From an uncultured Propionibacteriaceae bacterium (GTDB taxonomy: Bacteria; Actinomycetota; Actinomycetes; Propionibacteriales; Propionibacteriaceae): a stretch of DNA of 34,224 nucleotides. The notes under the pieces were generated by a model, which ran no database searches, was not told where the DNA came from, and saw only the letters and a program-made list of their open reading frames with translations. Every line of letters starts with the position of its first letter. Position 1 is the stretch's first letter. The stretch covers positions 1 to 34,224 of the forward strand of contig CAZGWN010000036.1 in NCBI GenBank assembly GCA_964528755.1. The letters are read 5' to 3'. Shown here piece by piece: positions 12,532 to 32,515 of this stretch. Position numbers and translations under genes: made by a program.

Positions 12532-13181
12532 CGCTCCAGTGTGCCCTCCCCGGCTGACACCTTCGGCAGCCGCTCCTCGATCGCCGCCACAATCCGACGC
12601 CGCAGTTCGTCGCGGTCTCCGCGAGCGTACAGCACCATGTATTGCTCCGGGGCGGTCGCGGCCAGGGCCCGGAAACCCGCCCGCACCCGGCGGTGGAACT
12701 CCTCGCCGGAGTCCTCCAGCCGGTCCGGGCTCTCCAATCCGGCCATCGCCACGGTCGGGTCGAGGTCGAGCAGGACGGTCAGGTCCGGCTCCAGCCCGCC
12801 CGTCGCCCAGTGTGCCAGCCGCGCGACGTCCTCGGCGGCCAGCACCCGCCCGGCCCCCTGATAGGCGATCAGCGAGTCGACGTAGCGGTCGCAGACGACG
12901 ATCGCGCCGCGATCCAGCGCCGGTCGGATCACCTCGGCGACGTGCTGGGCCTTGTCGGCGGCGTAGAGCAGGGCCTCGGCACGCGGATCGAGATCCCCGG
13001 TGGACGGGGACAGCAGCAGGTCGCGGATCACCGTCCCGGCACGCGTGGCGCCGGGTTCACGGGTGCGGACGACATCGTGGCCGCGGGCGGCCAGTTCGGC
13101 GGCGACCAGGGTGACCTGGGTGGTCTTGCCGACCCCGTCGCCGCCCTCGAAGACAACGAACAGCCCGCGTCGCTCAGACAT
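12528..13181 (-). CDS. tmk: Thymidylate kinase
   Basis: P-loop 'FVVFEGGDGVGKTTQ' and a DRY-like 'CDRYVDS' motif. ATG at 13181 with a GAGGACGG RBS. The longer ORF to 13211 is possible. Confidence 0.88.
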   Translation of the reverse strand: MSERRGLFVVFEGGDGVGKTTQVTLVAAELAARGHDVVRTREPGATRAGTVIRDLLLSPSTGDLDPRAEALLYAADKAQHVAEVIRPALDRGAIVVCDRYVDSLIAYQGAGRVLAAEDVARLAHWATGGLEPDLTVLLDLDPTVAMAGLESPDRLEDSGEEFHRRVRAGFRALAATAPEQYMVLYARGDRDELRRRIVAAIEERLPKVSAGEGTLER

Positions 13182-14685
13182 GACCGTCCTCGTCAGCGGC
13201 CCGGTGGGCACCCGCCTCCGCGATCGGTTCGGTCAGCGCGATCCCCACCCCGAGGCGCTCCAACAGGTCGGTGCCGGCGGCGCGCAGCTTGCGGGCATCC
13301 TTCGCCCAGTGGTCGACGTACTCGGCGCGGGCATCCGCCCGATTGTCGGCGAGCGCGGCATAGCGCCGGCCGATCCCGAATGCCTCCTCGGCGCTGGTTC
13401 CGGCCAGCGAGGCGCGCAGCTCGACCAATTCGTCGTTGTCGCAGGCGGTCAGCCCGTCGAGGAGGTCGTTGGCCCGCGACCGCAGCCGCTTCGCCTGCTT
13501 GGGGGCCAGCAGGACCGCGATCTCGGCGACGGCCCGCAACCGCTCGGCGGCCCGGGCGGCCTCGCGCCAGCCGGAGTCGTCGGCGGAGTGCGGCGCCGCC
13601 CGGCCGACCCGCAGCATCTCCTCGGTGGCAACCACCACCATGCCCGCGATCTCCTCGCGAGCCGCGCCGTGGCCGAGCCCCTCGGCGGTCGGCGGGCGGC
13701 GCAACTGCGCGACCCGGTCGAAGATGCCCAGATAGCGGTCGCCGGTGAGGATGACCTGCTGGTCGTCGCCGAAGGTGCCGTCGAGTTCGTCGGCGGCCCA
13801 GCGCACCTCGGCCAGCAGGTCGTCCAACGTCTCGGGTGCCAGCACCGGGGCGACCACCGGCAGGTCGTTGGCGAAGGAACGCAACGCCCGTACCAACGGT
13901 TGCACCTTGCGGGTCCGCCCCGAGCGGATGTTGAGATCGGCTTTCAGCACGTCGCGGGCCTGCTCGGCGATGAACCGGCCGACGATGTCGACCATCGTCG
14001 CGTCGGCGGGCGCCGGCTCGACCGGCCCCACCCCGAACGTGTCGACCCCTCCGGCCCGGTCCGGATCGGCGAGGATCCTCAGCCGCGCCGGCAGCGGCAC
14101 CTGCCTGTCGACCTGGACCCCGTCGACACCGCGGATGACGTCGTCGGCCCAGGCGATCTGCTCCCGGGTCATCGTCCCGGTGTCGATCGTCACCTCCCGG
14201 TACTGGGTCAGCACCTGCCCGTCGCGGCGGATGGTCACGTGGTCGTCGATGACTGTGCCGAGCGACTCGCGGTCGAGGTTGCGTACGAGGTAGGTGCTGC
14301 GGACCCGATGCCGGGTCCCGGCCGGTGCCAGGGGGGCATGCCGCAGCAGCGGGGAGAGCAGGGCCAGCATCGCATCGGGCACCTCCCCCGAGGTCATCGC
14401 CTCGACGTACTCGGCCGGCAGTTGGGGCCGCCATCCGGGCGCCGCGAGCAGCCACTCGCCCTCCCCGTCCATGGCCCGGTGCGCCAGGACGATGCCGGCC
14501 CGCAGCAGACGTCTGTCGGGGGTGTCGAGGATGGTGAGGTCGCACACGGCGGGCCTGGGGCTCACGGCCGCGGGGTTGGCCAGCCCGAGGTCGGGGTTGG
14601 CAAATCTCGGCGCGGCGGCCAGGTCACGCATCTCGTAGCGGCGCACAGCATTCCCTTCGGACGTACCCACAAGTGGATCGTCCAT
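13174..14685 (-). CDS. CYTH and CHAD domain-containing protein (triphosphate tunnel metalloenzyme-like)
   Basis: N-terminal CYTH-like 'DLTILDTPDRRLLRAGIVLAHR' motif followed by a long Ala/Arg/Glu-rich helical region typical of CHAD. ATG at 14685 (GGTGGGA upstream), or possibly 14724. Confidence 0.5.
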   Translation of the reverse strand: MDDPLVGTSEGNAVRRYEMRDLAAAPRFANPDLGLANPAAVSPRPAVCDLTILDTPDRRLLRAGIVLAHRAMDGEGEWLLAAPGWRPQLPAEYVEAMTSGEVPDAMLALLSPLLRHAPLAPAGTRHRVRSTYLVRNLDRESLGTVIDDHVTIRRDGQVLTQYREVTIDTGTMTREQIAWADDVIRGVDGVQVDRQVPLPARLRILADPDRAGGVDTFGVGPVEPAPADATMVDIVGRFIAEQARDVLKADLNIRSGRTRKVQPLVRALRSFANDLPVVAPVLAPETLDDLLAEVRWAADELDGTFGDDQQVILTGDRYLGIFDRVAQLRRPPTAEGLGHGAAREEIAGMVVVATEEMLRVGRAAPHSADDSGWREAARAAERLRAVAEIAVLLAPKQAKRLRSRANDLLDGLTACDNDELVELRASLAGTSAEEAFGIGRRYAALADNRADARAEYVDHWAKDARKLRAAGTDLLERLGVGIALTEPIAEAGAHRAADEDGHV

Positions 14686-14728
14686 TATCCCACCGCCGCC
14701 GCCCGTACGCCCGGGATCCGTCAACGAC

Positions 14729-17611
14729 TCAGTCGCCCGGCGTGTCGCCCCCGGCGGCCGGATCCGCCGTCGTCTTCTTCGTGGTCGTCTTCTTCGCCGT
14801 GGTCTTCTTGGCGGCCGTCTTCTTCGCCGTGGTCTTCTTGGCGGCCGTCTTCTTCGCGGTGGTCTTCTTGGCGGTCGTCTTCTTCGCGGTGGTCTTCTTC
14901 GCGGTCGTCTTCTTGGCGGGCCGCCGGGTCGACGGCCCCTTGGCCCGCTTCTCGGCGAGCAGTTCGGCGGCCCGCTCCGCGGTCAGGGTCTCGATCGCGT
15001 CGGTCCGCCGCAGGGTCGCGTTGGTCTCCCCGTCGGTGACGTAGGGCCCGAACCGGCCGTCCTTGACCACCATCGGCTTGCCGGTCGCCGGGTCGGCACC
15101 GAGTTCCTTCAGCGGGGGCCTGGCCGCGGCCCGTCCGCGCTGCTTCGGCTGGGCGTACAGGGCCTCGGCCTCCTCCAGCGTGACGGTGAAGATCTGGTCC
15201 TCGCTCGCCAACGACCGTGAATCGGAGCCCTTCTTCAGATACGCCCCGTAGCGACCGTTCTGCGCGGTGATCGTCTCCCCGTCGGCGGCGGTGCCGACCA
15301 CCCGCGGCAGGCTGAGCAGCCGCTGGGCGTCCTCCAGCCCGACGGTGTGCAGGTCCATCGACGCGAACAGCGATGCGGTTCGCGGCTTGGCGCCCTTGGG
15401 CGCGTCCTCGGGCAGGACCTCGGTGACGTACGGGCCGAATCGACCGGCCCGCGCGACGATCGGGTGCCCGGAGGCCGGGTCGAGCCCGAGCGCCCGCTCC
15501 TCCCCCATCGGCCGCGCGAGCAGTTCGCGGGCCTTGTCGACGGTGAGTTCGTCGGGGGGCAGGTCGTCGTCGACGTTGGCGCGCTTCTCGGTCGCGACCT
15601 CCTCCACGTACGTCCCGTAGCGGCCGACCCGCACCACGATGCCCGAATCCAGGTCGCCGATCGGGAAGGTCGACAGGGCGCGGGCGTCGATGTCGCCGAG
15701 CTGGTTGACCAGGTCGTGCAGACCGGCATGGTCGAGGTGCCCGGTCGCCGCGCCGGGGTCGCCGGCGTCACCACCCCAGTAGAACTCGTTGAGCACCTGC
15801 AGCCGCTTGGCCTGACCCGTGGCGATCTGGTCCAGGTCCTCCTCCATCGCGGCGGTGAAGGTGTAGTCGACCAGCTTGGAGAAGTGCTCCTCCAGCAGCC
15901 GCGTCACCGCGAACGCCAGCCAGGTCGGCACCAGCGCCTGCCCCCGCTTGAACACGTAGTCGCGGGTGGTGATGGTCCGGATGATCGAGGCGTACGTGGA
16001 CGGTCGCCCGATCTCCAGCTCCTCCAGCTTGGCGACCAGCGACGGCTCGGTGTAGCGGGCCGGCGGCTTGGTGGAGTGGCCCTGCGCCGCCAACTCGGCG
16101 ATCGCCACCTCGACCCCCTGCACCAGCCGCGGCAGCCTGCGCTGCGAGTCGTCGGCGGCCCCCTCGTCGACCGATTCGACGTACGCCCGCAGGAACCCGG
16201 GGAAGGTGATCGTCCGGCCGCGGGCGGTGAAGCCGGCGACCGTCCCGGAGGCGCCGGTCGCCTCCAGCGTGATGGTGGCCGACTCCCCGCGCGCGTCGGT
16301 CATCTGGGAGGCGACGGTCCGCATCCAGATCAGTTCGTAGAGCCGGCGCCGATCCCCGCTGAGCCCGGTCGCGTCCGGCGCGCGGAAAGTGGACCCGGCG
16401 GGCCGGATCGCCTCGTGCGCCTCCTGTGCGTTCTTCACCTTCGACCGATAGACCCTGGGCTGGTCGGGGACGTAGTCGGGCCCGTAGAGGCTGCGCGCCT
16501 GCGTCCGGGCGGCCCGGATCGCCTCCCCGGACAGCTCCACGGAGTCGGTCCGCATGTAGGTGATGAAGCCGCCCTCGTACAGCTCCTGGGCGACCGACAT
16601 CGTCCGCTGGGCGGTGAAGCCGAGCTTCCGTCCGGCCTCCTGCTGCAAGGTGGTGGTCCGGAAGGGCGCGTACGGGTGGCGGGTGTACGGCTTGGCCTCC
16701 ACCTCGACGACCCGGGCGCTGACACCCTCCAGGTCGGCGACGAGGGTCTCGGCCCGGGCCTGGTCGACGTGGGCGAGTTGCTCGTCGGTGCGCAGTCGGC
16801 CGCCGGAGTCGAAGTCGCGGCCCTGGGCGACGCGCAGCCCGTCGAGGCGGGTCAGCCGGGCGGTGAAATGCGGCGGCTCGGCGTCGGGGCCGGCATCCAT
16901 GGCGGCCTCGAGGTCCCAGTAGCCGGCCGGGACGAAGGCGATCCGTTCCCGCTCGCGGTCGACCACCAGCCGGGTGGCCACGGACTGGACGCGGCCGGCG
17001 GACAGCCGCGGCATGACCTTCTTCCACAGCACCGGCGAGACCTCGTAGCCGTAGAGCCGGTCGAGAATGCGGCGGGTCTCCTGGGCGTCGACGAGGTCGG
17101 TGTCGATCTGTCGGGGGTGGGTGACGGCGTCGCGGATGGCGTCCTCGGTGATCTCGTGGAAGACCATCCGACGGACCGGGACCTTGGGCTTGAGTTCCTG
17201 CTGCAGGTGCCAGGCGATCGCCTCGCCCTCGCGGTCACCGTCGGTGGCGAGGTAGAGCGCACTGGCACCCTTGAGGGCCTCCTTGAGGTTGCGCAGGGTG
17301 GCGCGCTTGTCGGGGGCGACGACGTACAAGGGGGCGAAATCGTGGTCGATGTCGACACCGGTGCGCGCCCAGGACTCTCCCTTGTACTTCGCGGGCACCT
17401 CCGCGGCGCCGGTGGGCAGGTCACGGATGTGGCCGCGGCTGGACTCCACCACATATCCCGGGCCGAGGTAGTCCTGGATCTTCGTCGCCTTCGTCGGTGA
17501 CTCGACGATCACCAGGTTGTGCCCGGGGGCAGAGGCGACCCCTCCGCCTGCCGTCTTGCCCGACCGCCCACCGGATCGGGCCGAGGTGCTCCCCGCGTCC
17601 TTGCTCGCCAC
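14729..17611 (-). CDS. topA: DNA topoisomerase I with a Lys-rich C-terminal tail
   Basis: 960 aa. Toprim 'LVIVESPTKATKIQ', catalytic-Tyr region 'GFITYMRTDS', and the actinobacterial C-terminal '(KKTTA)n' basic repeats. GTG start with a GAGAGAAGGA RBS. Confidence 0.95.
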   Translation of the reverse strand: MASKDAGSTSARSGGRSGKTAGGGVASAPGHNLVIVESPTKATKIQDYLGPGYVVESSRGHIRDLPTGAAEVPAKYKGESWARTGVDIDHDFAPLYVVAPDKRATLRNLKEALKGASALYLATDGDREGEAIAWHLQQELKPKVPVRRMVFHEITEDAIRDAVTHPRQIDTDLVDAQETRRILDRLYGYEVSPVLWKKVMPRLSAGRVQSVATRLVVDRERERIAFVPAGYWDLEAAMDAGPDAEPPHFTARLTRLDGLRVAQGRDFDSGGRLRTDEQLAHVDQARAETLVADLEGVSARVVEVEAKPYTRHPYAPFRTTTLQQEAGRKLGFTAQRTMSVAQELYEGGFITYMRTDSVELSGEAIRAARTQARSLYGPDYVPDQPRVYRSKVKNAQEAHEAIRPAGSTFRAPDATGLSGDRRRLYELIWMRTVASQMTDARGESATITLEATGASGTVAGFTARGRTITFPGFLRAYVESVDEGAADDSQRRLPRLVQGVEVAIAELAAQGHSTKPPARYTEPSLVAKLEELEIGRPSTYASIIRTITTRDYVFKRGQALVPTWLAFAVTRLLEEHFSKLVDYTFTAAMEEDLDQIATGQAKRLQVLNEFYWGGDAGDPGAATGHLDHAGLHDLVNQLGDIDARALSTFPIGDLDSGIVVRVGRYGTYVEEVATEKRANVDDDLPPDELTVDKARELLARPMGEERALGLDPASGHPIVARAGRFGPYVTEVLPEDAPKGAKPRTASLFASMDLHTVGLEDAQRLLSLPRVVGTAADGETITAQNGRYGAYLKKGSDSRSLASEDQIFTVTLEEAEALYAQPKQRGRAAARPPLKELGADPATGKPMVVKDGRFGPYVTDGETNATLRRTDAIETLTAERAAELLAEKRAKGPSTRRPAKKTTAKKTTAKKTTAKKTTAKKTAAKKTTAKKTAAKKTTAKKTTTKKTTADPAAGGDTPGD
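14769..14925. repeat. Tandem 15/30-nt coding repeat (gtcgtcttcttcgcggtggtcttcttggcg...) encoding the topA KKTTAKKTAA tail
   Basis: About 10 near-identical 15-nt units are visible in the sequence. They lie in frame within topA. Confidence 0.85.
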
Positions 17612-17765
17612 GTCCTTCTCTCTCCCTGTCCCCCCGCAGCCGGGCGGATCGGGCCCGGCACCGGAGTCACCCTAGCCCAGAACCGGAACCGGGCAACCGG
17701 TCATCGATCGTACGGCGACCACCGACACCCCGGTTCGGACCCCCGATCGCGCGATCCCGAGTAGC

Positions 17766-17786
17766 CTTGAGCGTAGGCGACTCAAG
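17766..17786. promoter_or_regulatory. HAIR-like inverted repeat (CTTGAGC-N7-ACTCAAG), putative HspR operator upstream of hsp20
   Basis: Matches the HspR-associated inverted repeat consensus CTTGAGT-N7-ACTCAAG at 13/14 positions. Lies ~110 bp upstream of the hsp20 ATG in the topA/hsp20 divergent intergenic region. Confidence 0.55.
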
Positions 17787-17896
17787 TTTCCCCGGTTTCG
17801 GGAATAGTCTCCCGGGCCGGCTCGTTCTACTGCACGAGTGGTCGAGAGAACGGCAGGCTCGGCCACCCGACGCTCCACTGCCGCAGGAGATGCATC

Positions 17897-18370
17897 ATGG
17901 CCCGTACCTTCGATCCGTTCCGCACGTTCGACGATCTGTTCGCCCAGTCCTTGCGTACGCCGACCTCGGTCGCCATGCCGATGGACCTCTATCGCGAGGC
18001 CGACAACTACTACGTCAAGATCGACCTGCCGGGTGTTGACCCGTCCACGATCGACGTCGACCTCGACGACCAGACCCTCACCGTCCGCGCCGAGCGCAAG
18101 CCGCAGGCCACCAAGGACGCCGAGTGGCTGACCCGGGAACGTCCGGCGGGCACCTTCGCCCGTCAGCTGACCCTGGGCACCGGGCTCGACGCCGAGCACA
18201 TCAACGCCGAGTACACCGACGGTGTGCTCGTGCTCACCATCCCGGTCGCCGAGCAGGCCAAGCCGCGCAAGATCTCGGTGGCCCACAAGTCCTCCGCCAT
18301 CGAGGGACAGGCGGAGGAGCAGCCCACCGAGACCGCCCAGCCCGTCCGGCAGCCGGTCGCCGCGAAGTAA
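17897..18370 (+). CDS. Hsp20/alpha-crystallin family small heat shock protein
   Basis: 157 aa. The ACD core 'YYVKIDLPGVDPSTIDVDLDDQTLTV...AEYTDGVLVLTIP' ends in the small-HSP I-x-V-type motif (here 'KISV'). GGAGATG RBS. Confidence 0.88.
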   Translation: MARTFDPFRTFDDLFAQSLRTPTSVAMPMDLYREADNYYVKIDLPGVDPSTIDVDLDDQTLTVRAERKPQATKDAEWLTRERPAGTFARQLTLGTGLDAEHINAEYTDGVLVLTIPVAEQAKPRKISVAHKSSAIEGQAEEQPTETAQPVRQPVAAK

Positions 18371-18518: not shown

Positions 18519-19754
18519 TCACTGGTGCCGGTGGGCACCGCGTCCCACCAGCTCCGTGACCAGCACCGCCACGAGCAGCGCCGCGCCCAGCAGCGGGGTG
18601 GCGGCACTGAGCAGGACCTGCCCCGGGGAGTAGTCGAGTTCCTGCATGCCGCCCGCGGGCAGGATCTGATAGGGCGCGATCCAGACCCACAGGACGAGAA
18701 CGGCGCCGATGCCGAGCACCCACCCGGACTGCGCCGGGTGTGCCTCGCGGCGGACGCGCTGGACGAGCAGGACGGCCAGCGGCACGATCCACACGAAGTG
18801 GTGGGTCCACGAGACCGGGGAGACCAGGGCACTGGTGAGCCCGACGAGCACGATGCCCAGCGCCTCCTCCCCTCGCCGGCGGAGGACGAGGGCGGCGGCG
18901 ATGCCGAGCACCAGGACGATCACCGAGACCGCCGTCCCCACGGCCGGTCCCGTGGTCAGCCCGAACGCCCGCATCGCCGCGCCGGTGAAAGACTGGTTGT
19001 CCAGATAGATCGGGTCGGACTCGAACCCGACCGAGTGCGTCGTCGCCAGGCGGTGCCAGTAGAACGCCGAGTAGCCCGGCAGCACTGCCCACCCGATCGC
19101 GGTGAGTACGGCCGCGGTGACGATGGCGACCAGCGCCTCGCGCCGGCGCCGGGCGAGCAGCAGGTAGACGATGAACAGGCCCGGCGTCAGCTTGATCGCG
19201 GTCATCAGGCCGACGATCCAGCCGGCCGGCAGACGACGACGCCCCGGCGCCCCCGGCATGATGTCCAGCAGGATCAGACAGGTCAGCAGGATCTCGACCT
19301 GTCCGAGAGCCGTGGACAGGGTCACCGGCACCGCGGTGGCGATGGCGGCCGCCGCGACCAGTGAGGCCGGCCGGCCCCGCAGCCCGCAGCGGTGCACCAC
19401 GGCGATGATGCCCGCCCAGCCGGCGATCGCCCACAGGATTTTCCACCCGGCGGTGGGTCCCAGCAGGAAGACCATGAACCCGATTGCGGCGATCGGCGGG
19501 TAGACGAAGGCATTCGGGCCGTCGCGATAGAGCTCCCCGCCGTGCAGCGCGGCCCTCGCCCCGTCGACGTAGATGCCGAAGTCGGCCATCGCGCCGGCGA
19601 GCCCGTCCGGGGACAGCGCCTGCGGGATGAGCCAGGACACGAGGCCGGCCACGATCGGCAGGCCGAGCTGGGCGAGGACCCGGATCCGCGCACGCCGGTC
19701 CTGCGGCCCCGGCCGTTCGTACGTGTCGGTGCGGGTGTCCACGGTTGCCTCCAC
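18519..19754 (-). CDS. GT87/DUF2029 family integral-membrane glycosyltransferase (polyprenyl-phosphate-sugar dependent, GT-C-like)
   Basis: 411 aa with ~10 TM helices and an 'AIKLTPGLF' motif typical of DUF2029 mannosyltransferases. GTG start. Confidence 0.65.
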   Translation of the reverse strand: MEATVDTRTDTYERPGPQDRRARIRVLAQLGLPIVAGLVSWLIPQALSPDGLAGAMADFGIYVDGARAALHGGELYRDGPNAFVYPPIAAIGFMVFLLGPTAGWKILWAIAGWAGIIAVVHRCGLRGRPASLVAAAAIATAVPVTLSTALGQVEILLTCLILLDIMPGAPGRRRLPAGWIVGLMTAIKLTPGLFIVYLLLARRRREALVAIVTAAVLTAIGWAVLPGYSAFYWHRLATTHSVGFESDPIYLDNQSFTGAAMRAFGLTTGPAVGTAVSVIVLVLGIAAALVLRRRGEEALGIVLVGLTSALVSPVSWTHHFVWIVPLAVLLVQRVRREAHPAQSGWVLGIGAVLVLWVWIAPYQILPAGGMQELDYSPGQVLLSAATPLLGAALLVAVLVTELVGRGAHRHQ

Positions 19755-19882
19755 GGGCCCATCCTGTCATCTCCGAGTCCGGGCCCGGCGGCGCGGACAG
19801 CGACCCGCTGACCCGTCGCCGGGCATCCTGGTCGATGATCGTTCAGGAGACCGTCCGCCCCCACGAGCAAGGAGACATACCC

Positions 19883-21334
19883 ATGGGGACTGCTGTTGTT
19901 GTCGGCATCATCGCCGTCGTCGTCGTCGCTGCGGCCATCGCGGTGCCGATCATGGTCCGCGGCTGGATCAAGGTGGCCCGCGCCGACGAGGCGCTGGTCA
20001 TCTCGGGACGGCGCCAGAAGACCGAGACCGGGGACTCGCCGGTCACGGTGATCGTGTCGGGTCGGGCGGTGGTCAACCCGTTCCTGCAACGGGCCGAGTT
20101 GATCTCGCTGCGATCACGCCAGGTGGCGATGACCGCCGAGGCGCAGTCCGAGGACAACGTGACCCTGCAGGTGGAGGCGGTCGCGATCGTCAAGGTCGGA
20201 TCCTCGGCCGAGCTGGTCCGCCGGGCCGCCGAACGGTTCGCCTCCCAGGACGCCGCGATCGAGCACTTCACCACCGAGCAGCTGGAGGGCGCCCTCCGCG
20301 GGGTCGTGGCGACCCTGCCGGTCACCGGGCTGATGCGCGACCGCAAGAAGTTCTCCGAGCAGATCGCCTCCGACGTCGCCACCGAGCTGGCCGAGCAGGG
20401 GCTCATCCTGGACTCGTTCCAGATCAAGGGCATCACCGATCAGGTCGGCTACATCTCCTCGCTGGGCATCCCCCAGGTCGAGGCGAAGCGGCGCGAGGCC
20501 GAGATCGCCCAGACCGACGTGAAGCGGGCGATCACGGCCCGCGAGATCGCCACCGCCGAGGAGAACCTGATCGAGCAGACCCGGCTGGATCAGAACCGGG
20601 CGAACGCCGCGGCCGAGGTCGGCAAGGCCCGCGCCGAGGCGGAGCAGGCCGCCGCACTGGCCCGGGCCAGCGCCGAACAGTCGGTGCTGGTGCAGGAGGC
20701 CGAGAACCGGCAGGCGCAACTGGACGCGGACGTCAAGCGGGTCGCCGACGCCGAACGATACAAGCGTCAGCAGGCCGCCGAGGCGGCCGCGTTCGAACAG
20801 GCCAAGAAGGCCGAGGCCGCCGCGAAGGTGGCCCAGGCCGAGGCCGACGCGGCCCGCTACTCGCGTGCGCAGGCCGCCGAGGTGGCCGCGTTCGAGGAGA
20901 TCAAGCGCGCCGAGGCGCTGGCCCGCTCGGCCACCGCCGAGGCGGAGGCCACCCGCCAGAAGGCCCAGGCCGAGGCGGAGGCGGTCCGGCTGGCCGGTCA
21001 GGCGAAGGCGGACGCGATCGAGGCCGAGGCGGCCGCCCTCGCCCGCAACCAGGAGGCGCTGCTGGCCCGCCAGGCCCTGGACCAACTGCCCACCCTGATG
21101 GAGGCCTTCGCCGCCGGGTACGCCAAGGTCGGGTCGGTGACCGTGATCGGATCCGGCAACGACACGGCACCCGGCGCCCGGATGGCCGCCGAACAGGGGG
21201 TCGCCCTGGCCGGGGTCTTCGAGTCGGTCAAGGCGACGACCGGGCTCGACCTGGGTGAGTTGATCGCGGGCCGGGCCACCGGGCGGGCGATCGGCGAGGC
21301 CGTGTCCGGCTCCGGCTCCGGCTCCGGCAACTGA
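19883..21334 (+). CDS. Flotillin/SPFH (band 7) domain protein, YuaG/FloT-like
   Basis: N-terminal TM 'MGTAVVVGIIAVVVVAAAIAVPIMVRGWIKVARADEALVISG', an SPFH domain, then a long Ala/Glu-rich coiled coil (EA repeats). AAGGAGA RBS at 19868. Confidence 0.82.
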   Translation: MGTAVVVGIIAVVVVAAAIAVPIMVRGWIKVARADEALVISGRRQKTETGDSPVTVIVSGRAVVNPFLQRAELISLRSRQVAMTAEAQSEDNVTLQVEAVAIVKVGSSAELVRRAAERFASQDAAIEHFTTEQLEGALRGVVATLPVTGLMRDRKKFSEQIASDVATELAEQGLILDSFQIKGITDQVGYISSLGIPQVEAKRREAEIAQTDVKRAITAREIATAEENLIEQTRLDQNRANAAAEVGKARAEAEQAAALARASAEQSVLVQEAENRQAQLDADVKRVADAERYKRQQAAEAAAFEQAKKAEAAAKVAQAEADAARYSRAQAAEVAAFEEIKRAEALARSATAEAEATRQKAQAEAEAVRLAGQAKADAIEAEAAALARNQEALLARQALDQLPTLMEAFAAGYAKVGSVTVIGSGNDTAPGARMAAEQGVALAGVFESVKATTGLDLGELIAGRATGRAIGEAVSGSGSGSGN

Positions 21335-21356: not shown

Positions 21357-21713
21357 TCAGTGTCGCCCGCGCAGTTCGTCGATCTGGCGACGCTCCTTCT
21401 TGGTCGGCCGTCCGGCCCCGCGGTCCCGGCGGGCCACCGGCGCCGACAGGTACGCCGGGCGTTCCGGGGAGTGATCGACGTACGCCTTGACGGCCAACGG
21501 CGCCCCGACCCGCTTGTCGAGGAGCTGGACGACCTCGAACTCCCGGTCCCAGCCGGGCGTGCGGATGACCACCCGGTCGCCCGGATGCAGGCTCTGGGCC
21601 GGCTTGGTCGGGGCGCCGTTGACCCGGATGTGCCCGCCTTTGCAGGCCTCGGTCGCCTGGGAGCGGGTCTTGAACAGGCGCACCGACCACAGCCACGCGT
21701 CGACCCTGGTCAT
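21357..21713 (-). CDS. S4-domain RNA-binding protein (Hsp15/HslR-like)
   Basis: 'MTRVDAWLWSVRLFKTRSQATEACKGGHIRVNGAPTKPAQSLHPGDRVVI', an S4 fold of the ribosome-associated heat shock protein 15 type. Strong CAGGAGGTG RBS. Starts 22 bp after the MazF-like stop. Confidence 0.7.
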   Translation of the reverse strand: MTRVDAWLWSVRLFKTRSQATEACKGGHIRVNGAPTKPAQSLHPGDRVVIRTPGWDREFEVVQLLDKRVGAPLAVKAYVDHSPERPAYLSAPVARRDRGAGRPTKKERRQIDELRGRH

Positions 21714-21735
21714 CGGCACCTCCTGGGGCTCACCA

Positions 21736-22107
21736 CTATTGCCTCCTGCCCATGGAGTCGGCCGCACCATGGGTCGATGGCGGCTCACAATCGACCGCCG
21801 CGGCCAGGGCGGCGCACAGCTCACGCATCCGGCTCCCATCGAGCCGGCCCAGCCTTGACACGAGGAGCCCCACCGACACTCTTTCGACGAAGTCGAGGCT
21901 GACCACGCACGGCTGCGGTACAGGGTCGCGGCCCGGCTCGAGCGCGACCTCGGTCACCAGATCGCGGACGTTCGTCGTGCACGGAGCGACCAGCGCCCTC
22001 CCGAGCCGAGGGATCACCACATCTCGGCTCAACACCACGACCGGCCGACGTCCGATGTCCGGCGGCTCACACCACCAGACGTCCCCGCGGCTGACTCGAC
22101 CCCTCAC
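21736..22107 (-). CDS. Type II toxin, MazF/PemK family endoribonuclease
   Basis: 123 aa. 'MRGRVSRGDVWWCEPPDIGRRPVVVLSRD...APCTT' matches the MazF/PemK hallmark motifs RGD(I/V)WW and RP(A/V)LV(V/L)S. Its start overlaps the upstream antitoxin stop by 4 nt. Confidence 0.8.
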   Translation of the reverse strand: MRGRVSRGDVWWCEPPDIGRRPVVVLSRDVVIPRLGRALVAPCTTNVRDLVTEVALEPGRDPVPQPCVVSLDFVERVSVGLLVSRLGRLDGSRMRELCAALAAAVDCEPPSTHGAADSMGRRQ

Positions 22108-22340
22108 GACGCACCGGCCGCCTCGCCGAACGACGCCAGGTCACCCCACGCGTCGGGGGTGTCGATCGGCACGCGATCGTACGCCTCGAAGGTCGCGTCC
22201 ACCGCAGCCCGTCGGTGCTGCGTCAGCAGAGCCGTCAGGGCCGCCTCCACCATGGAGGCATCGGTCTCTCCGACATGCAGATCCCTGGCCGCCGCCAACA
22301 AGTCACGGTCCACGGTCGTGCTCAGCCTCACCTTTACCAT
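22104..22340 (-). CDS. Cognate antitoxin, ~78 aa MazE/RHH-like
   Basis: 'MVKVRLSTTVDRDLLAAARDL...' is a small acidic C-terminus protein. It overlaps the toxin gene by 4 bp and is preceded by an operator-like inverted repeat. The annotated 138 aa ORF is an upstream extension. Confidence 0.65.
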   Translation of the reverse strand: MVKVRLSTTVDRDLLAAARDLHVGETDASMVEAALTALLTQHRRAAVDATFEAYDRVPIDTPDAWGDLASFGEAAGAS

Positions 22341-22366
22341 GCCACGATCATGCCACTGTCGTGGCA
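22341..22366. promoter_or_regulatory. Inverted repeat GCCACGA-N12-TCGTGGC at the start of the antitoxin gene (candidate TA autoregulatory operator)
   Basis: Perfect 7-bp arms read from the sequence. Lies in the 41-bp gap between the DUF218 stop and the antitoxin start. Confidence 0.4.
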
Positions 22367-22381
22367 CTGGATCAAGGGCGC

Positions 22382-23023
22382 TCAGCAGCCGGGCTGGAAG
22401 CGCGATTTGAGCCATGCCCCGGACTGGTAGGCGAACGAGAACAGCCATTGCCCGACCGAGTGCGGCTGACGGAACTCCCACACCTCGACCGTCGGGCCGT
22501 CGACGCACCGGTTCATCCACATCCGGGCCCGGGCGACGTGAGCGGTGGTGGTGAGCACGGCGACGTGGTCCCAGCCGCGCTCGGCGGCCACCCGGTTGAG
22601 CAGGCGGGCCTCACCCCTCGTCGTGTACGGGTCCGGGTCGACGCACTCGATGATGATGTCGGGCAGGCCCGGATAGCCGGCACAGTAGTCCCGCGGATAG
22701 CGTTCACCGGTGCGTGGGTCGACCGACACCGTGGTCAGGATCGTGGCGGTCAGGCCACTCCGCGCCAGGTCGATCGCCAGCGGCATCCGCTCCTCGGCAG
22801 GCCCGATGACGTACAGGGCGTCGACCGGCTGGGGCTGATCCACCCGCGGGTGGACGACGAAGCGCCAGCACAGTCCGAGCCAGACCAGGACGGCCGCGAC
22901 CAGCGCGATCAGGATGATGAGGAATGTACGCACCCGGTGGCGTCGCCGGTCAGGTCGCTCTCGCGGGTACGCATGGCGGCCTCCGCCGATGCCCATCGGT
23001 GTTTCGGCCCCAGGCTCCGCCAC
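22382..23023 (-). CDS. DUF218/YdcF-SanA-like membrane-anchored protein
   Basis: 213 aa. N-terminal TM 'FLIILIALVAAVLVWLGLCW' followed by a DUF218-like core ('DALYVIGPAEERMPLAIDLARSG', 'VAVLTTTAHVARARMW'). Confidence 0.6.
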   Translation of the reverse strand: MAEPGAETPMGIGGGRHAYPRERPDRRRHRVRTFLIILIALVAAVLVWLGLCWRFVVHPRVDQPQPVDALYVIGPAEERMPLAIDLARSGLTATILTTVSVDPRTGERYPRDYCAGYPGLPDIIIECVDPDPYTTRGEARLLNRVAAERGWDHVAVLTTTAHVARARMWMNRCVDGPTVEVWEFRQPHSVGQWLFSFAYQSGAWLKSRFQPGC

Positions 23024-23032
23024 AGGCCCAGC

Positions 23033-23905
23033 CTACTGGCGGCCGCGGGCGAGTTGTTGGAGGAGGTAGGTGCCGTAGCCGGACTTGACCAGGCTCTCGG
23101 CCCGGGCGCGCAACTCGTCGTCGGACAAGAACCCCATCCGCCAGGCCGCCTCCTCCGGACACCCCACCTGCAACCCCTGCCGGGCCTGCAGGGTCCGCAC
23201 ATAGTTGCCCGCATCGTTCAACGAGTCGAACGTGCCGGTGTCCAGCCACGCCGTCCCCCGCGGCAACACCTCCACCTGCAGGCGACCCGCACGCAGATAG
23301 TGATCGTTGACGTCGGTGATCTCGTACTCCCCCCGCGCCGACGGCTGCAAGGATCGCGCGATCTCGACCACCTGGTTGTCATAGAAATACAGCCCCGGCA
23401 CCGCAAAATTCGACCGCGGCACCGCCGGCTTCTCCTGCACCGACAACGCCCGCCCCGACCCGTCGAACTCGACCACCCCGTACGCGGACGGGTCGGCCAC
23501 CCAGTAGGCGAACACCGCCGCACCCTCCAGACTCTCAAACCGGCGCAGCCGGGTCCCCAGACCCGGACCGTAGAAGATGTTGTCACCCAACACCAACGCG
23601 ACCCGATCGGACCCGATGAACCCCGCCCCGATCGTGAACGCCTGCGCCAGACCCCTCGGCTCCGGCTGCGTCGCGTAGGACAGCGACACCCCGTAGCGCG
23701 ACCCGTCACCCAACAACCGCTCGAACGCGGGCGCGTCGGCCGGGGTGGTGATGATCAAAATGTCGCGGATCCCCGCCAGGATCAGCGTCGTCAACGGGTA
23801 ATAGATCATCGGCTTGTCATAGACCGGCACCAACTGCTTCGACACCCCGATCGTGATCGGATGAAGACGCGTACCAGCCCCACCAGCCAAAATGATCCCC
23901 CGCAT
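23033..23905 (-). CDS. rmlA: Glucose-1-phosphate thymidylyltransferase
   Basis: '[38 protein letters not shown]...' is the canonical RmlA N-terminus. ~290 aa. The annotated 396 aa ORF is an upstream extension. Confidence 0.9.
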
Positions 23906-24093
23906 AAACCCGACTCTGGCAGCCCGGCCGAGGAGCCGCAAGTCGGGAGCCACCGGCGGTCGCGCCCGGGACCACCGTCGGTCCGCAGGAAGGGAAACCC
24001 AACTTGGCGCGGCCGCCGCACCCTGATAGTTTCTGACCCGGATGCTCGGGAGCATCCGGTCGGAAAGCAAGACGCAAACCTTGGGGGACGTCC

Positions 24094-26726: not shown

Positions 26727-28105
26727 GGGTCTGTCCGGTAAACGGTGTGTGGGGTCCGGCGGTTTTCAGTGAGTGGCTCTCTCGAACCGTCCGGCGAAGG
26801 TGATCGCGAACGCGTTCAGCGCGGGCTTCCACCTCATCACCCAGCGTGCCCTGCCCCCGCCGGTGGGGTCAAGCGACCTCGTCACGAGATAGAGGCACTT
26901 GAGCGCGGCTGCCTCGTTCGGGAAGTGGCCGCGCGCCCTGACTGCCCTGCGGTATCTCGCGTTGATCGACTCGATCGCGTTGGTCGTGCAGATCACTCGC
27001 CGGATCTCGACGTCGTACTCCAGGAACGGCACGAACTCTGCCCAGGAGCTGCGCCAGAGCTGGATGATCGCCGGATACCGCTCACCCCACTCGGTAGCGA
27101 ACTCCTCGAACCGGTCCTTCGCCGCTTGCTCGGACGGAGCCGTATAGACCGGCTTGAGGGACTTTACGATCGCGCCCCGGTGCTGCCGTCCGGCGTAACG
27201 GAAGCTGTTGCGGATCAGGTGGACGATGCACTGCTGCACGACCGTCTGCTCCCAGGTGGTGTTGATCGCCTCCGGCAGCCCCTTGAGGCCGTCGCACACC
27301 GCGATCAGCACGTCCTCGACTCCGCGGTTCTTCAGCTCGCTGAACACCGGCAGCCACAACCTCGCCCCTTCCGCGCCGTCACCGGCCCAGATACCCAGGA
27401 TGTCGCGTTCCCCGTTCGTAGTGACGCCCATGACGACGTAGAACGGGGTGTTGCGGACCTGCCCGTCACGGACCTTCACCACGATCGCGTCGACGAAGAT
27501 CACCGGGTAGATCGCATCCAGCGGCCTGCTCGACCATTCGGCGAGTTCCCCGGTGACCTTCTCGGTGATCGGGCTGATCGTGTCCTTGGAGACCTTCGCC
27601 CCATAGACCTCGTCAAAATGCGCGGCGATCTCTCCGGTCGTGAGCCCTCTCGCGGTCAGCGACAGCACGATCTGATCGATCCCGTCCAGCCGCCGTTTGC
27701 GCTTCGGGACGATCACCGGCTCGAAGGACCCGTCACGATCCCGGGGAACCTCGATCTCGACGGGCCCGATCTCGGTGAGCACGGTCTTCGTCCGGCTCCC
27801 ATTGCGCATGTTCACCCCCAGCGGGGTCTCGCCGTGCTCGTGGCCGAGATGCTCGGTCAGCTCAGCGTTCAGCGCGGTCTCAAGCACGTTCTTCGAGAGC
27901 TGGTTCAACAGGCCACCAGGCCCGACCAGGCTCACACCCTGCTCCTTCGCCTGCGCAAGCAAGCGCTCGGCAAGGTCCTTCTGATCGATGATCCCTCCCG
28001 TCACGGGGTCAATCATCTCGTCGTCCAGCCGTTCGGTCGTGTCAGCCACGGCCGTCTCCTTTCGGATCAGGCCGGACCCTCACACACCGTTCTTCTGACA
28101 GTCCC
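26727..28105 (-). mobile_element. IS256-family insertion sequence, apparently intact (~1.38 kb) with imperfect ~30-bp terminal IRs
   Basis: Left end GGGTCTGTCCGGTAAACGGTGTGTGGGGTCC. The right-end reverse complement GGGACTGTCAGAAGAACGGTGTGTGAGGGTCC shares the core AACGGTGTGTG. Encloses a complete 427 aa transposase. No clean direct repeat at the flanks. Confidence 0.8.
26766..28049 (-). CDS. IS256-family (mutator-type) transposase
   Basis: 427 aa with DDE-type mutator-family motifs ('IYPVIFVDAIVVKVR', 'VLIAVCDGLKGLPEAI', 'VVQQCIVHLIRNS', 'RRVICTTNAIESINARYRR'). Confidence 0.9.
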   Translation of the reverse strand: MADTTERLDDEMIDPVTGGIIDQKDLAERLLAQAKEQGVSLVGPGGLLNQLSKNVLETALNAELTEHLGHEHGETPLGVNMRNGSRTKTVLTEIGPVEIEVPRDRDGSFEPVIVPKRKRRLDGIDQIVLSLTARGLTTGEIAAHFDEVYGAKVSKDTISPITEKVTGELAEWSSRPLDAIYPVIFVDAIVVKVRDGQVRNTPFYVVMGVTTNGERDILGIWAGDGAEGARLWLPVFSELKNRGVEDVLIAVCDGLKGLPEAINTTWEQTVVQQCIVHLIRNSFRYAGRQHRGAIVKSLKPVYTAPSEQAAKDRFEEFATEWGERYPAIIQLWRSSWAEFVPFLEYDVEIRRVICTTNAIESINARYRRAVRARGHFPNEAAALKCLYLVTRSLDPTGGGRARWVMRWKPALNAFAITFAGRFERATH

Positions 28106-29208
28106 AAAGTTGGTTGATGGTTCGCTTTCCTGAGGATTTCGTCGGCGGTCTTGGTCCAGATGAAGGCGTGTTTGCGGTCGTTCCAGCCGGTGATGAATTG
28201 CCGGATCTTGGCATTGAGGTCTTTCACGCTTGTGAACACGCCGCGGCGGATCGCTTGCTTGTCGATGATCCCGAACCAAACTTCGACGAGGTTCAGCCAC
28301 AACCCGGATGTCGGGGTGAAGTGCACGTGGAAGCGGGGATGCTTCTGGAGCCAGTCGTCGACCTCGGGGGTCTTGTGGGTGGCGTAGTTGTCCATCACCA
28401 GGTGCAGGTCCTGGTCCCGGTAGGCGCGATCCAGCTGGCGGAGGAAGGCAAGGAACTCCTGGCGGCGGTGCTTCGGCTTGACCGCGCCGGTGACGTGCCC
28501 GGTCGCGATCTCCAGCGCCGCGAACAGTGTCGTCGTGCCGTGCCGCTCGTAGTCGTGGGTGCGTTTCTCCGCATCGCCCGGCCGCATCGGCAGCATCGGC
28601 GCGGTGCGGTCCAGCGCCTGAATCTGGCTCTTCTCATCCACGCACACCACGACCGCGTTATCCGGCGGCGCCACATACAGGCCGACGACGTCGGTGACCT
28701 TACCGACCAACTCCGGGTCGGTGGGGAACTTGAACGTCTCGGCCCGCCAGGGCTGCACCCCGTACGTGCGCCACGCCCGCGCCACCGTCGCGTTCCCGAT
28801 TCTCAAGTGATCCGCCAACAGCCGCGACGACCAGTGCGTCACCCCGAACTTTCTCGGCGGCTGCTGCAGTGTCGCCGTGATGATGCGCTCGTCATCGACG
28901 TGCTTGGGACGCCCCGCACGCGGCGCGTCGACCAGGCCCGCCAGCCCCGCCTCGGCATACCGGTTCCGCCACGTCCACACCGACGTCGTCGTCGTTCCCA
29001 CCTCGGCCGCGATCCGCGCATTCGCGATCCCCTCCGATGCGAGCAGCACGATCCGGGCCCTCCTCGCCAGCCCCGCACCGATTGCCGTGGACCGCGTCCA
29101 CGACATCAACTCATCCCGATCACCATCCCAGAGCACCAACGCCGGAGCAGGAGAACTCGCCACAACCAAACTCTCCCAAACCACCAAACACTCACGAACT
29201 AACGGCAC
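28042..29208 (-). CDS. IS630-family transposase; the last ~21 codons are read-through into IS256 sequence
   Basis: N-terminal HTH ('LVLWDGDRDELMSWTRSTAI...ARRARIVLLASEGIANARIAAEVG') and a DDE domain ('VVCVDEKSQIQAL', 'LHLVMDNYATHKT', 'HFTPTSGLWLNLVEVWF'). The frame runs across the IS256 junction. Confidence 0.75.
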   Translation of the reverse strand: MPLVRECLVVWESLVVASSPAPALVLWDGDRDELMSWTRSTAIGAGLARRARIVLLASEGIANARIAAEVGTTTTSVWTWRNRYAEAGLAGLVDAPRAGRPKHVDDERIITATLQQPPRKFGVTHWSSRLLADHLRIGNATVARAWRTYGVQPWRAETFKFPTDPELVGKVTDVVGLYVAPPDNAVVVCVDEKSQIQALDRTAPMLPMRPGDAEKRTHDYERHGTTTLFAALEIATGHVTGAVKPKHRRQEFLAFLRQLDRAYRDQDLHLVMDNYATHKTPEVDDWLQKHPRFHVHFTPTSGLWLNLVEVWFGIIDKQAIRRGVFTSVKDLNAKIRQFITGWNDRKHAFIWTKTADEILRKANHQPTLGLSEERCVRVRPDPKGDGRG

Positions 29209-29240
29209 GAGACACTAGAAGGCCGAGATGCTCCGACCTG
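28106..29240 (-). mobile_element. IS630-family element whose 3' end is interrupted by the IS256 insertion
   Basis: Contains the IS630-type transposase ORF. The native C-terminus and right IR are displaced by IS256 at 28105/28106. The outer boundary near 29240 is approximate. Confidence 0.55.
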
Positions 29241-32112: not shown

Positions 32113-32515
32113 TACGGGCCAGAATGTGACCTAGACACTCCCATTCTCCCTAGCCAGGAGCACTTTCACATCCCCGGCCCCAGCAATCAAGACGACCCCG
32201 CATGAAAGGGGCAGGCCAAGTCGCGGATCGCTTCGTTCTCGAACAGCCCGATCGCGGACCAGTCAGGCGTTGTCATATGCATCGCCGATCAAGCCCTCCG
32301 CACCGACGCCGACCCTGACCCAGGAGCTTGGCTCGCTGTCGTCAACGAAGACGTGACCTGCGTCCTTCGACACCGATCGCGGATCATCGACTATAATGAT
32401 CAAGGCCATGCTGGAAGCGCTATGACAACGGGATGAGTTTGGCGCTTCGGCAAGGCGCAAGGCCCTAGACTCGGGATTCTGGGGTCTTGCATGACGGAAC
32501 CGAGAGGAGACAACG

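Follow-up and report, generated by a model that had tools for sequence, protein, structure and literature searches.

The stretch of DNA analysed here, which we call the window, is 34,224 nucleotides long, and at the locus of interest it carries three neighbouring open reading frames on the minus strand, all of them real, as a preliminary description of this DNA had it. They are an antitoxin gene (22104-22340; 78 aa, ATG start), a toxin gene (21736-22107; 123 aa, GTG start, TAG stop at 21738-21736) and an S4/Hsp15-like gene (21357-21713; 118 aa, counted from the ATG at 21713). A gene for a DUF218-like membrane protein, whose start codon is uncertain, lies upstream on the same strand (22382-23023). 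The antitoxin and toxin genes overlap by 4 bp as had been described, but the overlap reads GTGA and not ATGA, because the start codon of the toxin is GTG. The spacer between the toxin and S4 genes (21714-21735, minus strand) is exactly 22 nt long and holds the ribosome-binding site AGGAGG (21724-21719), 5 nt ahead of the S4 ATG, so that this part of the description is accurate. A scan found no terminator-like site between the cassette genes and the S4 gene, and a search of Rfam gave no match to an RNA family here. A 27-nt similarity of 74% between the start of the S4 gene (21693-21719) and the 3' part of the antitoxin gene (22146-22172) lies away from the junctions and was judged to be due to chance.

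The toxin is, on the evidence of its sequence, a protein with the PemK/MazF-type endoribonuclease fold. It scored 52.8 bits with the Pfam PemK_toxin model (PF02452), whose cutoff is 23.1, over profile positions 2-107 of 109, and the MazF/PemK hallmarks recognised earlier in the 123 aa frame are there (RGDVWW, RRPVVVLS and APCTT). The search returned 3167 homologues, all listed ones with PF02452 and the top ones 66-77% identical to the window toxin. The closest solved structure was M. tuberculosis MazF3 (PDB 5uct; E 2.9e-10, residues 20-107, about 40% identity over 88 residues). In the HMMER alignment with MazF3, R21 of the toxin falls on Arg13 and T44 on Thr36, which together with Asp10 we take to be the key residues of MazF-mt6. 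An AF2 model built from an alignment of 33 sequences, which was too shallow and too uniform, reached a pLDDT of 41.6, and because this model failed the catalytic residues were placed from the sequence alignment. The catalytic Arg and Thr of MazF have been described (PMC11394972), and at the sequence level their equivalents (Arg29/Thr52 in E. coli MazF) are kept in the window toxin. R20, R21, T44 and T45 are invariant across the 33 aligned family members, and all 37 invariant columns are kept in the window. These four residues lie in the family-conserved core (21784-22107, minus strand; residues 1-108), which is followed by a C-terminal extension of 15 non-conserved codons and the TAG stop (21736-21783). 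In 63 of the 69 homologous loci the toxin is 107-109 aa long and ends directly past ...AVDC. A DNA comparison found no similarity between the extension and the intergenic region of Raineyella sp. L001, one of the closest relatives.

In nearly all of about 70 related metagenome loci, which occur in unrelated neighbourhoods, the small antitoxin gene stands directly upstream of the toxin gene, the same translationally coupled arrangement as in the window with its 4-bp GTGA overlap, and the two genes are also adjacent in the contigs that we looked up. Judged by gene arrangement and similarity, the two genes are a MazE/MazF-type type II toxin-antitoxin (TA) pair with its putative operator at the antitoxin start, as originally proposed. 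For the antitoxin we found 74 homologues of 78-79 aa, and the window protein keeps all 22 invariant columns of this family, for which no adequate Pfam or NCBIfam model exists. The VapB_antitoxin model (PF09957) was touched by 30 of 32 family members at E <= 1, with a best E of 4e-6; the window antitoxin itself reached E 0.17 with this model and E 0.15 with CcdA, and had no Pfam match at E <= 0.01. In the PDB, phmmer found nothing for the antitoxin, and a profile search returned the Rv0298 antitoxin alone, weakly (E 0.34). The AF2 model (pLDDT 77) is extended over residues 1-11 and helical over 12-21, 27-56 and 68-77, a secondary structure compatible with a strand-helix-helix N-terminus. Foldseek found nothing below E 3 for this model in the PDB, and its weak matches, including NikR, PrpA, ParD2 and MazE-mt1, prove nothing. 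The sequence comparisons weakly support a ribbon-helix-helix (RHH) fold for the family. The N-terminal part, an RLSTTV strand followed by two helices, is probably an RHH DNA-binding domain, and the conserved C-terminal motif P.D..D.WGDLASF is presumed to bind the toxin.

The inverted repeat reported at the antitoxin start is present, with arms GCCACGA (22365-22359) and TCGTGGC (22347-22341), but its spacer is 11 nt long and not 12. The arms can be extended to 8 bp (TGCCACGA/TCGTGGCA, 22366-22340); in this form the repeat ends with the A of the ATG. Because the window holds 154 perfect 7-bp inverted repeats with a loop of at most 20 nt (about 4.5 per kb), the inverted repeat alone is not beyond chance. 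The tandem repeat GTGGCATG-N3-GTGGCATG (22338-22356), unique in the window where 0.04 would be expected at up to two mismatches, is beyond chance, and conservation in 48 homologous loci adds weight to it. From the sequence and a position matrix of 48 distinct homologous loci, we place the promoter-operator of the cassette at 22340-22375 on the minus strand. Its elements are a -35-like TTGATC (22375-22370), a first half-site in inverted form, GTGCCAC (22367-22361), a second half-site GTGGCAT (22356-22350), a -10 box CATGAT (22352-22347) and a third half-site GTGGCAT (22345-22339), which overlaps the antitoxin ATG at 22340. Three GTGGCA(T) half-sites at 11-bp spacing thus cover both the -10 box and the start codon of the antitoxin, a layout common to the 48 loci; in the matrix the repeats occupy -27 to -21, -16 to -10 and -5 to +3, with A at -11 and T at -7 in 47 of the 48. 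At nearly all informative positions the operator in the window agrees with the consensus of its family, and its -10 box is CATGAT as against the canonical TANNNT. No hit came from a generic promoter scan here.

This conserved layout of half-sites points to a leaderless, autoregulated promoter. The antitoxin mRNA is predicted to be leaderless because no Shine-Dalgarno sequence is present. Of the 37 TA pairs in M. tuberculosis for which there is a primary transcription start site, 32 are leaderless, with a TANNNT -10 box (PMC3898074), and mycobacterial TA operators are centred on the -10 box, where the RHH antitoxin MazE6 binds (PMC9477884). As we read it, the cassette is made up of a promoter-operator of 35 bp and two genes, a mazE-like one for the antitoxin and a mazF-like one for the toxin. 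What is known of the family suggests how these parts may work together. An antitoxin dimer, alone or with the toxin, would bind the three half-sites, which follow each other at intervals of one helical turn and extend over the -10 box and the predicted start point of the leaderless mRNA, and the operon would thereby be repressed. The WGDLASF region at the C-terminus of the antitoxin would block the toxin, and once the antitoxin is lost the MazF-type endoribonuclease would cut RNA by means of the conserved Arg21/Thr44 pair.

Compared with the family consensus of at least 90%, the window toxin is divergent at four positions (V5, S70, F73 and R76), and with these changes and its 15-aa tail it could be weakened. 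It is conceivable that the cassette is a decaying remnant, its toxin reduced in activity or dead, and that the two genes survive only as a neutral passenger or in the role of an antitoxin-regulator. Apart from the four departures, such decay would agree with the loss of the usual stop of the family, by which the 15 residues were gained, and with a comparison of two strain variants in which the amino acid was changed by 4 of 7 substitutions in the toxin gene compared to none of 3 in the S4 gene. However, the numbers of substitutions are much too low to test for selection, and both reading frames are intact in both variants. Moreover, complete retention of the invariant columns (37 of 37 in the toxin and 22 of 22 in the antitoxin) and an operator that fits the family consensus are not what a remnant would be expected to show, and we consider decay quite improbable.

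The third gene has an S4 domain (Pfam, 46.3 bits), and the Hsp15 structures 5z81, 1dm9 and 30qz matched its product nearly end to end, over residues 2-111, with E from 3e-13 (5z81) to 2e-8. These matches bear out the earlier assignment of an S4-fold, Hsp15-like gene. Like E. coli Hsp15 (HslR), the protein combines an S4 domain with a basic C-terminal extension, and it aligns more weakly with B. subtilis RqcP/YabO. It differs from Hsp15 in that it scores 42.2 bits with the NCBIfam equivalog model NF007673, below the cutoff of 148, and in that its gene lies outside the TA module. On these comparisons it is a relative in the Hsp15 family, with orthology not demonstrated. Its orthologues in Raineyella and other Propionibacteriaceae are 65-78% identical and occur without the TA pair.

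If the S4 protein were a functional partner of the toxin, as the preliminary description suggested, the two should recur together. Neither TA family was found in any of 80 S4 loci (tblastn, and HMMs over 593 kb), and about 80 TA loci in other organisms likewise lack an S4 gene nearby; the S4 gene stands next to the TA family solely in copies of the same organism. The co-occurrence expected of a three-component TA system is thus absent for the S4 gene. This gene also keeps its syntenic place in relatives that lack the TA pair, a finding that the preliminary description had named in advance as one against the partnership. Because the TA and S4 genes co-occur in none of the other loci, their pairing looks like an accident of insertion and not like a conserved functional partnership.

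The flanks of the cassette agree with this. The gene upstream is present as described, but its match to Pfam DUF218 is below threshold (25.1 bits vs 27.6); with the gene that immediately precedes S4 in Raineyella sp. L001 it shares 50% identity. In the closest relatives the gene directly before S4 is either DUF218 (L001) or rmlA (L002 and L003). DNA homology with L001 stops at 22376, and blastn found homology to L001 and L003 to resume at 21722-21724, so that a cassette of 653 bp stands here in place of 165 bp of intergenic DNA in L001. Direct repeats or target-site duplications were looked for at the borders of the insertion and none was found. Gene orders and boundaries together support an insertion of the cassette into a pre-existing rmlA-DUF218-S4 row, as the preliminary description had allowed in an alternative reading; nothing shows that this row is the stress operon it was then called. 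The DUF218-like gene would be resident as the upstream flank, and the S4 gene would be resident and ancestral to the locus. The gain is deduced from about four close and 15 more distant relatives, compared without a phylogeny, and in principle the pattern could come from loss elsewhere instead of gain here. We suggest, with a probability of about 0.85, that the locus is a self-contained type II TA cassette of about 650 bp, inserted between the DUF218-like and S4 genes in one Propionibacteriaceae lineage, with the S4 gene as a bystander.

The insertion may nevertheless have changed how the bystander is transcribed. A TA(G/C)NNT hexamer stands at most 100 nt from the S4 ATG in each of the 19 relatives, and in ten of them the -10 box is 27-38 nt ahead of that codon. 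Neither this hexamer nor TANNNT occurs in the 100 nt upstream of the S4 gene in the window, and it appears that the -10 box kept by all 19 relatives has been lost here, the native upstream region of the gene having presumably been replaced by the cassette. Because no -10 box stands ahead of the S4 gene, it is probably transcribed by read-through, most likely from the TA promoter or from the upstream rmlA-DUF218 genes, and its co-transcription with the TA genes is likely to be a by-product of the insertion. A weak hexamer, AATAGT (21740-21735), overlaps the toxin stop 21 nt ahead of the S4 ATG and could give the gene some transcription of its own. If it did so fully, the S4 gene would still have a promoter to itself, within the 3' end of the toxin gene, and the two units would be transcriptionally independent despite the 22-nt gap. 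The hexamer has A as its second and T as its sixth letter, and its distance from the ATG may be set beside the position of the -10 box in the ten relatives. However, AATAGT is not TANNNT, the box found in 19 of 19 relatives is missing here, and a generic scan returned no promoter-like site; we regard such independence as rather unlikely.

With read-through, the opposite view has to be weighed, namely that toxin, antitoxin and Hsp15-like protein form a selected three-gene unit in which the S4 protein deals with stalled ribosomes or 50S subunits that result from the action of the toxin. E. coli Hsp15 binds 50S subunits, and the S4 protein matches Hsp15 structures. The toxin of the nearest solved relative, MazF3 (MazF-mt6), cleaves 23S rRNA within free 50S subunits (PMC5408214). 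The short gap without a terminator-like site and the missing -10 box make co-transcription likely, and the arrangement is retained in a variant of the locus (L158) that is 98.7% identical. This variant, however, is so similar that it cannot serve as independent evidence, and the target of the window toxin cannot be deduced from MazF3 because the identity is about 40% over 88 residues. None of the three genes contains a UUCCU or UCCUU site, an absence that is uninformative here. Against such a unit also stand the orthologues of the S4 gene, which work without a TA pair in all relatives, and the 80 S4 loci without one, and we give it very little credence. A related idea is that the insertion placed the S4 gene behind an autoregulated promoter that is derepressed under stress. 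The Hsp15-like protein would then be induced as the antitoxin is degraded and a MazF-mt6-like toxin becomes active, and the rewiring was perhaps kept since Hsp15 helps with toxin-affected 50S subunits; this we hold to be a long shot.

Known systems place the cassette, as we read it, among common TA modules. M. tuberculosis MazEF3 (Rv1103c/Rv1102c; toxin MazF-mt6; PDB 5uct/5cca), the best solved-structure match of the toxin, is likewise a small actinobacterial two-gene operon with the antitoxin upstream; both toxins have the short type of beta1-beta2 loop, and the Arg of RP(V/L) and the Thr of AP.TT align. It is a distant relative, however, whereas the window toxin, with its additional 15-aa tail, belongs to a separate and very large clade of proteins of 107-109 aa, which share 65-77% identity with it, and the specificity of MazF-mt6 (UU^CCU, 23S rRNA helix 70) is not transferable to it. 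The MazE6 operator complex of M. tuberculosis (PMC9477884) resembles the window in the strand-helix-helix N-terminus of the antitoxin and in an operator over the -10 box that gives a leaderless TA transcript, both predicted here. Its operator is a single 18-bp non-palindromic site, in contrast to the three half-sites in the window, the last of which lies over the start codon. Pairs annotated in RefSeq as PemK/MazF toxin and antitoxin, with 59-67% toxin identity, occur on five large mycobacterial plasmids, and these annotated copies show the toxin family to be one already recognised and present on mobile DNA. Those pairs differ in being plasmid-borne and in having other neighbourhoods, none of them adjoining an S4 gene.

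The locus matters little beyond annotation, as one more member of a very large actinobacterial MazEF clade, in which the tempting link between a toxin and a ribosome-rescue gene appears to be a local accident. The sharply conserved 30-bp promoter-operator with its three GTGGCAT sites may offer a simple system for antitoxin-DNA recognition on leaderless promoters. If read-through occurs as we suppose, the locus is also a clean case from nature in which a TA cassette captures the transcription of a resident gene. In four of six contigs of the same locus from other samples no toxin had been called, and a pseudogene was considered; their DNA is 100% identical to the window, and the missing call is thus an omission of gene calling.

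The locus is a MazEF-type toxin-antitoxin (TA) cassette from a large, already recognised actinobacterial clade, and its site before a resident Hsp15-like gene is a new placement. The minus strand carries, in order, rmlA (23033-23920; NTP_transferase, 240 bits), a DUF218-like gene (22382-23023; 25.1 bits, slightly below the Pfam cutoff), an antitoxin ORF of 78 aa (22104-22340), a toxin ORF of 123 aa (21736-22107) and an S4-domain ORF of 118 aa (21357-21713), which faces a convergent flotillin-like gene on the plus strand (19745-21334). The preliminary description was correct on the ORFs, on the toxin motifs and on the 22-nt gap between the toxin and S4 genes with its AGGAGG site (21724-21719). 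The overlap of antitoxin and toxin had been read as ATGA; the four shared bases are GTGA, because the toxin start codon is GTG.

The toxin scored 52.8 bits against Pfam PemK_toxin (threshold 23.1). A word-indexed database search returned 3167 homologues, the top ones 66-77% identical and several of them bearing the source names 'mRNA interferase MazF' or 'PemK/MazF family toxin'; five large mycobacterial plasmids also carry homologues (59-67% identity) annotated as PemK/MazF toxins. The nearest solved structure was M. tuberculosis MazF3 (Rv1102c, MazF-mt6; 5uct; E 2.9e-10), and in the alignment to it R21 and T44 of the toxin correspond to Arg13 and Thr36. In MazF enzymes, the recognised catalytic residues are a conserved Arg, which serves as general acid/base, and a Thr, which serves as transition-state stabiliser (PMC11394972). 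Since the structure model of the toxin had a pLDDT of 42, the catalytic residues were assigned from sequence only. The toxin retains all 37 invariant columns of a 33-member alignment, R20, R21, T44 and T45 among them, and departs from the consensus of at least 90% at four positions (V5, S70, F73 and R76). Homologues typically end at 107-109 aa, directly after ...AVDC (63 of 69), and these lack the 15 non-conserved C-terminal codons found in the window (EPPSTHGAADSMGRRQ region, 21736-21783, minus strand). The ORF appears to read through the usual end of the cassette into this 15-codon extension, and its stop is a TAG 22 nt 5' of the S4 gene.

The antitoxin had no match in Pfam, NCBIfam or PDB at default thresholds. 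In its family (74 members found, 78-79 aa, 51-73% identity), the N-terminal strand RLSTTV is invariant, two helices follow, and the motif P.D..D.WGDLASF is conserved at the C-terminus. When 32 members were scanned singly, 30 matched the ribbon-helix-helix family PF09957 at E <= 1 (best 4e-6) and fifteen matched CcdA; against the PDB, the family profile reached the Rv0298 antitoxin at E 0.34 only. In the AF2 model (pLDDT 77), an extended N-terminus is followed by helices 12-21 and 27-56, and a disordered linker leads to a C-terminal helix (68-77); this layout would resemble that expected of a ribbon-helix-helix monomer with a toxin-binding tail. A Foldseek search with the antitoxin gave nothing significant. 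We consider a ribbon-helix-helix fold probable.

Antitoxin and toxin are a fixed two-gene module. The antitoxin gene lay directly 5' of the toxin in nearly all of about 70 metagenome loci, which were retrieved by the toxin, and the contigs that we looked up held the same pair with a 4-bp overlap in neighbourhoods unrelated to one another. The 183-kb contig Ga0272427_1000121 (loci L083 and L110) has a TA cluster with two copies of this MazEF family about 2.6 kb apart and Phd/ParE and Phd/PIN pairs between them. The toxin gene is uncalled in the public annotation of several contigs (L159-L162, which have the same region as the window, and the TA loci L082 and L085); their DNA is identical to the window or contains a toxin frame of 63-70% identity. 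Such missed calls make the antitoxin look orphan, a gene-calling artefact that is relevant when 'solo' antitoxins are counted.

At the antitoxin start, an inverted repeat (GCCACGA/TCGTGGC) had been proposed with a spacer of 12 nt; the repeat exists, but the spacer is 11 nt, and the arms reach 8 bp when T22366 and the A of the ATG are counted in. By itself a 7-bp inverted repeat is unremarkable in the window, which has 154 perfect ones with a short loop. The operator signal emerged from a comparison of the 70 nt 5' of the antitoxin start at 48 distinct loci, where GTGGCA(T) occurs three times, at -27..-21, -16..-10 and -5..+3, one helical turn (11 bp) apart, the third copy taking in the ATG. 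Upstream of -27, conservation was at background. The orientation of site 1 varies between loci, and the inverted repeat arose because the window has the inverted form, GTGCCAC. The tandem GTGGCATG-N3-GTGGCATG occurs a single time in the window, with 0.04 expected. An A at -11 and a T at -7, found at 47 of the 48 loci, occupy the second and sixth places of a hexamer that spans -12..-7 (CATGAT in the window), so that transcription is predicted to start about the A of the antitoxin ATG, before which there is no Shine-Dalgarno sequence. The layout on the minus strand is TTGATC (22375-22370), 17 nt, CATGAT (22352-22347), 6 nt, ATG. M. tuberculosis uses TANNNT as its -10 motif, and of the 37 TA pairs that have a primary TSS there, 32 are leaderless (PMC3898074). 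In mycobacteria, the -10 box is usually the centre of a TA operator, and it is there that the ribbon-helix-helix antitoxin MazE6 binds (PMC9477884). We conclude that the cassette has a putative autoregulated leaderless promoter, in which the operator is conserved and the binding and the transcription start are predicted. The reading as a MazE/MazF pair with its operator is supported by the Pfam match, the fixed pair and the three sites conserved over 48 loci. To our knowledge, a three-site GTGGCA(T) operator has not been described.

It had also been suggested that the TA module was inserted into an existing gene row, and this is supported by comparison with Raineyella sp. (L001). DNA homology extends past the DUF218 stop to 22376 and restarts at 21722, within the S4 ribosome-binding site, and the window has 653 bp where L001 has 165 bp. 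At its left edge the cassette extends 8 nt beyond the operator conserved in the family and so came with a minimal promoter; the 3' junction is at or just past the normal toxin end, because homologues end after ...AVDC and the window ORF continues. No flanking direct repeats were found at the insertion. A 27-nt direct similarity (74%) between the S4 start region (21693-21719) and the 3' part of the antitoxin gene (22146-22172) stems from GTGCCGAT and GACGCGTGG, with D-A-W encoded in both proteins; it is probably due to chance and lies away from any insertion junction. The transposase genes closest to the cassette (IS256 family and IS630-like, 26766-29214) start about 4.4 kb off and do not adjoin it.

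The S4 protein is a relative of the Hsp15 family. It contains a Pfam S4 domain, and its residues 2-111 align with Hsp15 structures (E 3e-13 to 3e-9); its 42 bits are far below the NCBI Hsp15 equivalog cutoff of 148. When one genome per species was scanned, 80 loci had a relative; the closest, in Raineyella and other Propionibacteriaceae (65-78% identity), place the window in that bacterial family. Toxin and antitoxin were absent from all 80 S4 loci (tblastn, and a 593-kb search with family HMMs). The reverse search, with an HMM of the 80 S4 proteins, had no match in the TA loci L082-L157, its sole match being L081, an identical copy of the window organism from another sample; two further TA contigs list no S4-domain gene. 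The preliminary description had offered a functional partnership of toxin and Hsp15 as one possibility, with S4 synteny without the TA pair in relatives as part of what would count against it. Such synteny is what we found, since the gene directly 5' of S4 is DUF218 in L001 (185-bp gap) and rmlA in L002 and L003, with rmlA and a membrane protein 5' of it in L004. The partnership therefore has no comparative support among the S4 and TA loci compared. The uncultured Propionibacteriaceae contig L003 has two tandem S4/Hsp15-like copies (504-859 and 1386-1736) 3' of rmlA, the first apparently split by a frameshift near residue 91.

The insertion may have changed how the S4 gene is transcribed. A TA(G/C)NNT hexamer lies no more than 100 nt upstream of the S4 ATG in all 19 Propionibacteriaceae relatives (L001-L019). 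Seven of these (L005-L011) have it as close as 6-8 nt to the ATG, a distance that implies an S4 mRNA with no leader; the gene seems to be leaderless in some Propionibacteriaceae and to have a Shine-Dalgarno leader in others. In the window, the corresponding 100 nt contain no TANNNT, the sole candidate being a weaker AATAGT that overlaps the toxin stop, and there is no terminator-like site between the genes. This points to a probable loss of the S4 gene's own promoter; the likeliest source of its transcription is now the TA promoter or the rmlA-DUF218 genes upstream. Hsp15 binds 50S subunits. MazF-mt6 cleaves 23S rRNA in free 50S subunits (PMC5408214). With both acting on 50S, there is a small residual possibility that the promoter capture may have become useful, but the toxin is about 40% identical to MazF3 and the MazF-mt6 target is not transferable to it.

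Identity over the region is 100% in six contigs from other samples, the toxin gene being merely uncalled in four, and every ORF is intact in a 98.7% identical variant (L158). This variant and the window differ in the toxin by 7 nucleotides and 4 amino acids and in S4 by 3 and 0, too few for a selection test. An active TA pair is favoured by the intact ORFs, by the retention of the invariant residues and by an operator close to consensus; the toxin's four unusual residues and its tail leave some room for attenuation.

In the region 26766-29214, an IS256-family (Mutator) transposase gene overlaps an IS630-like DDE_3 gene, and there is a further DDE transposase fragment (transposase regions 26766-29214 and 31618-32130). 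GC falls from about 0.72 to 0.58-0.65 toward the right end of the window, a trend suggesting that a variable or acquired region begins about 4.4 kb from the TA cassette. On the other side, an Hsp20 small heat-shock gene (17777-18370, plus strand) is 3 kb from the Hsp15-like gene (21357-21713, minus strand), with GT87 glycosyltransferase and flotillin genes between them; L158 and L159 share these neighbours. A 602-codon open frame without a Pfam match (13174-14982, minus strand) has a coding-like GC3 of 0.84 and overlaps the 3' end of the topA frame (14729-17671).
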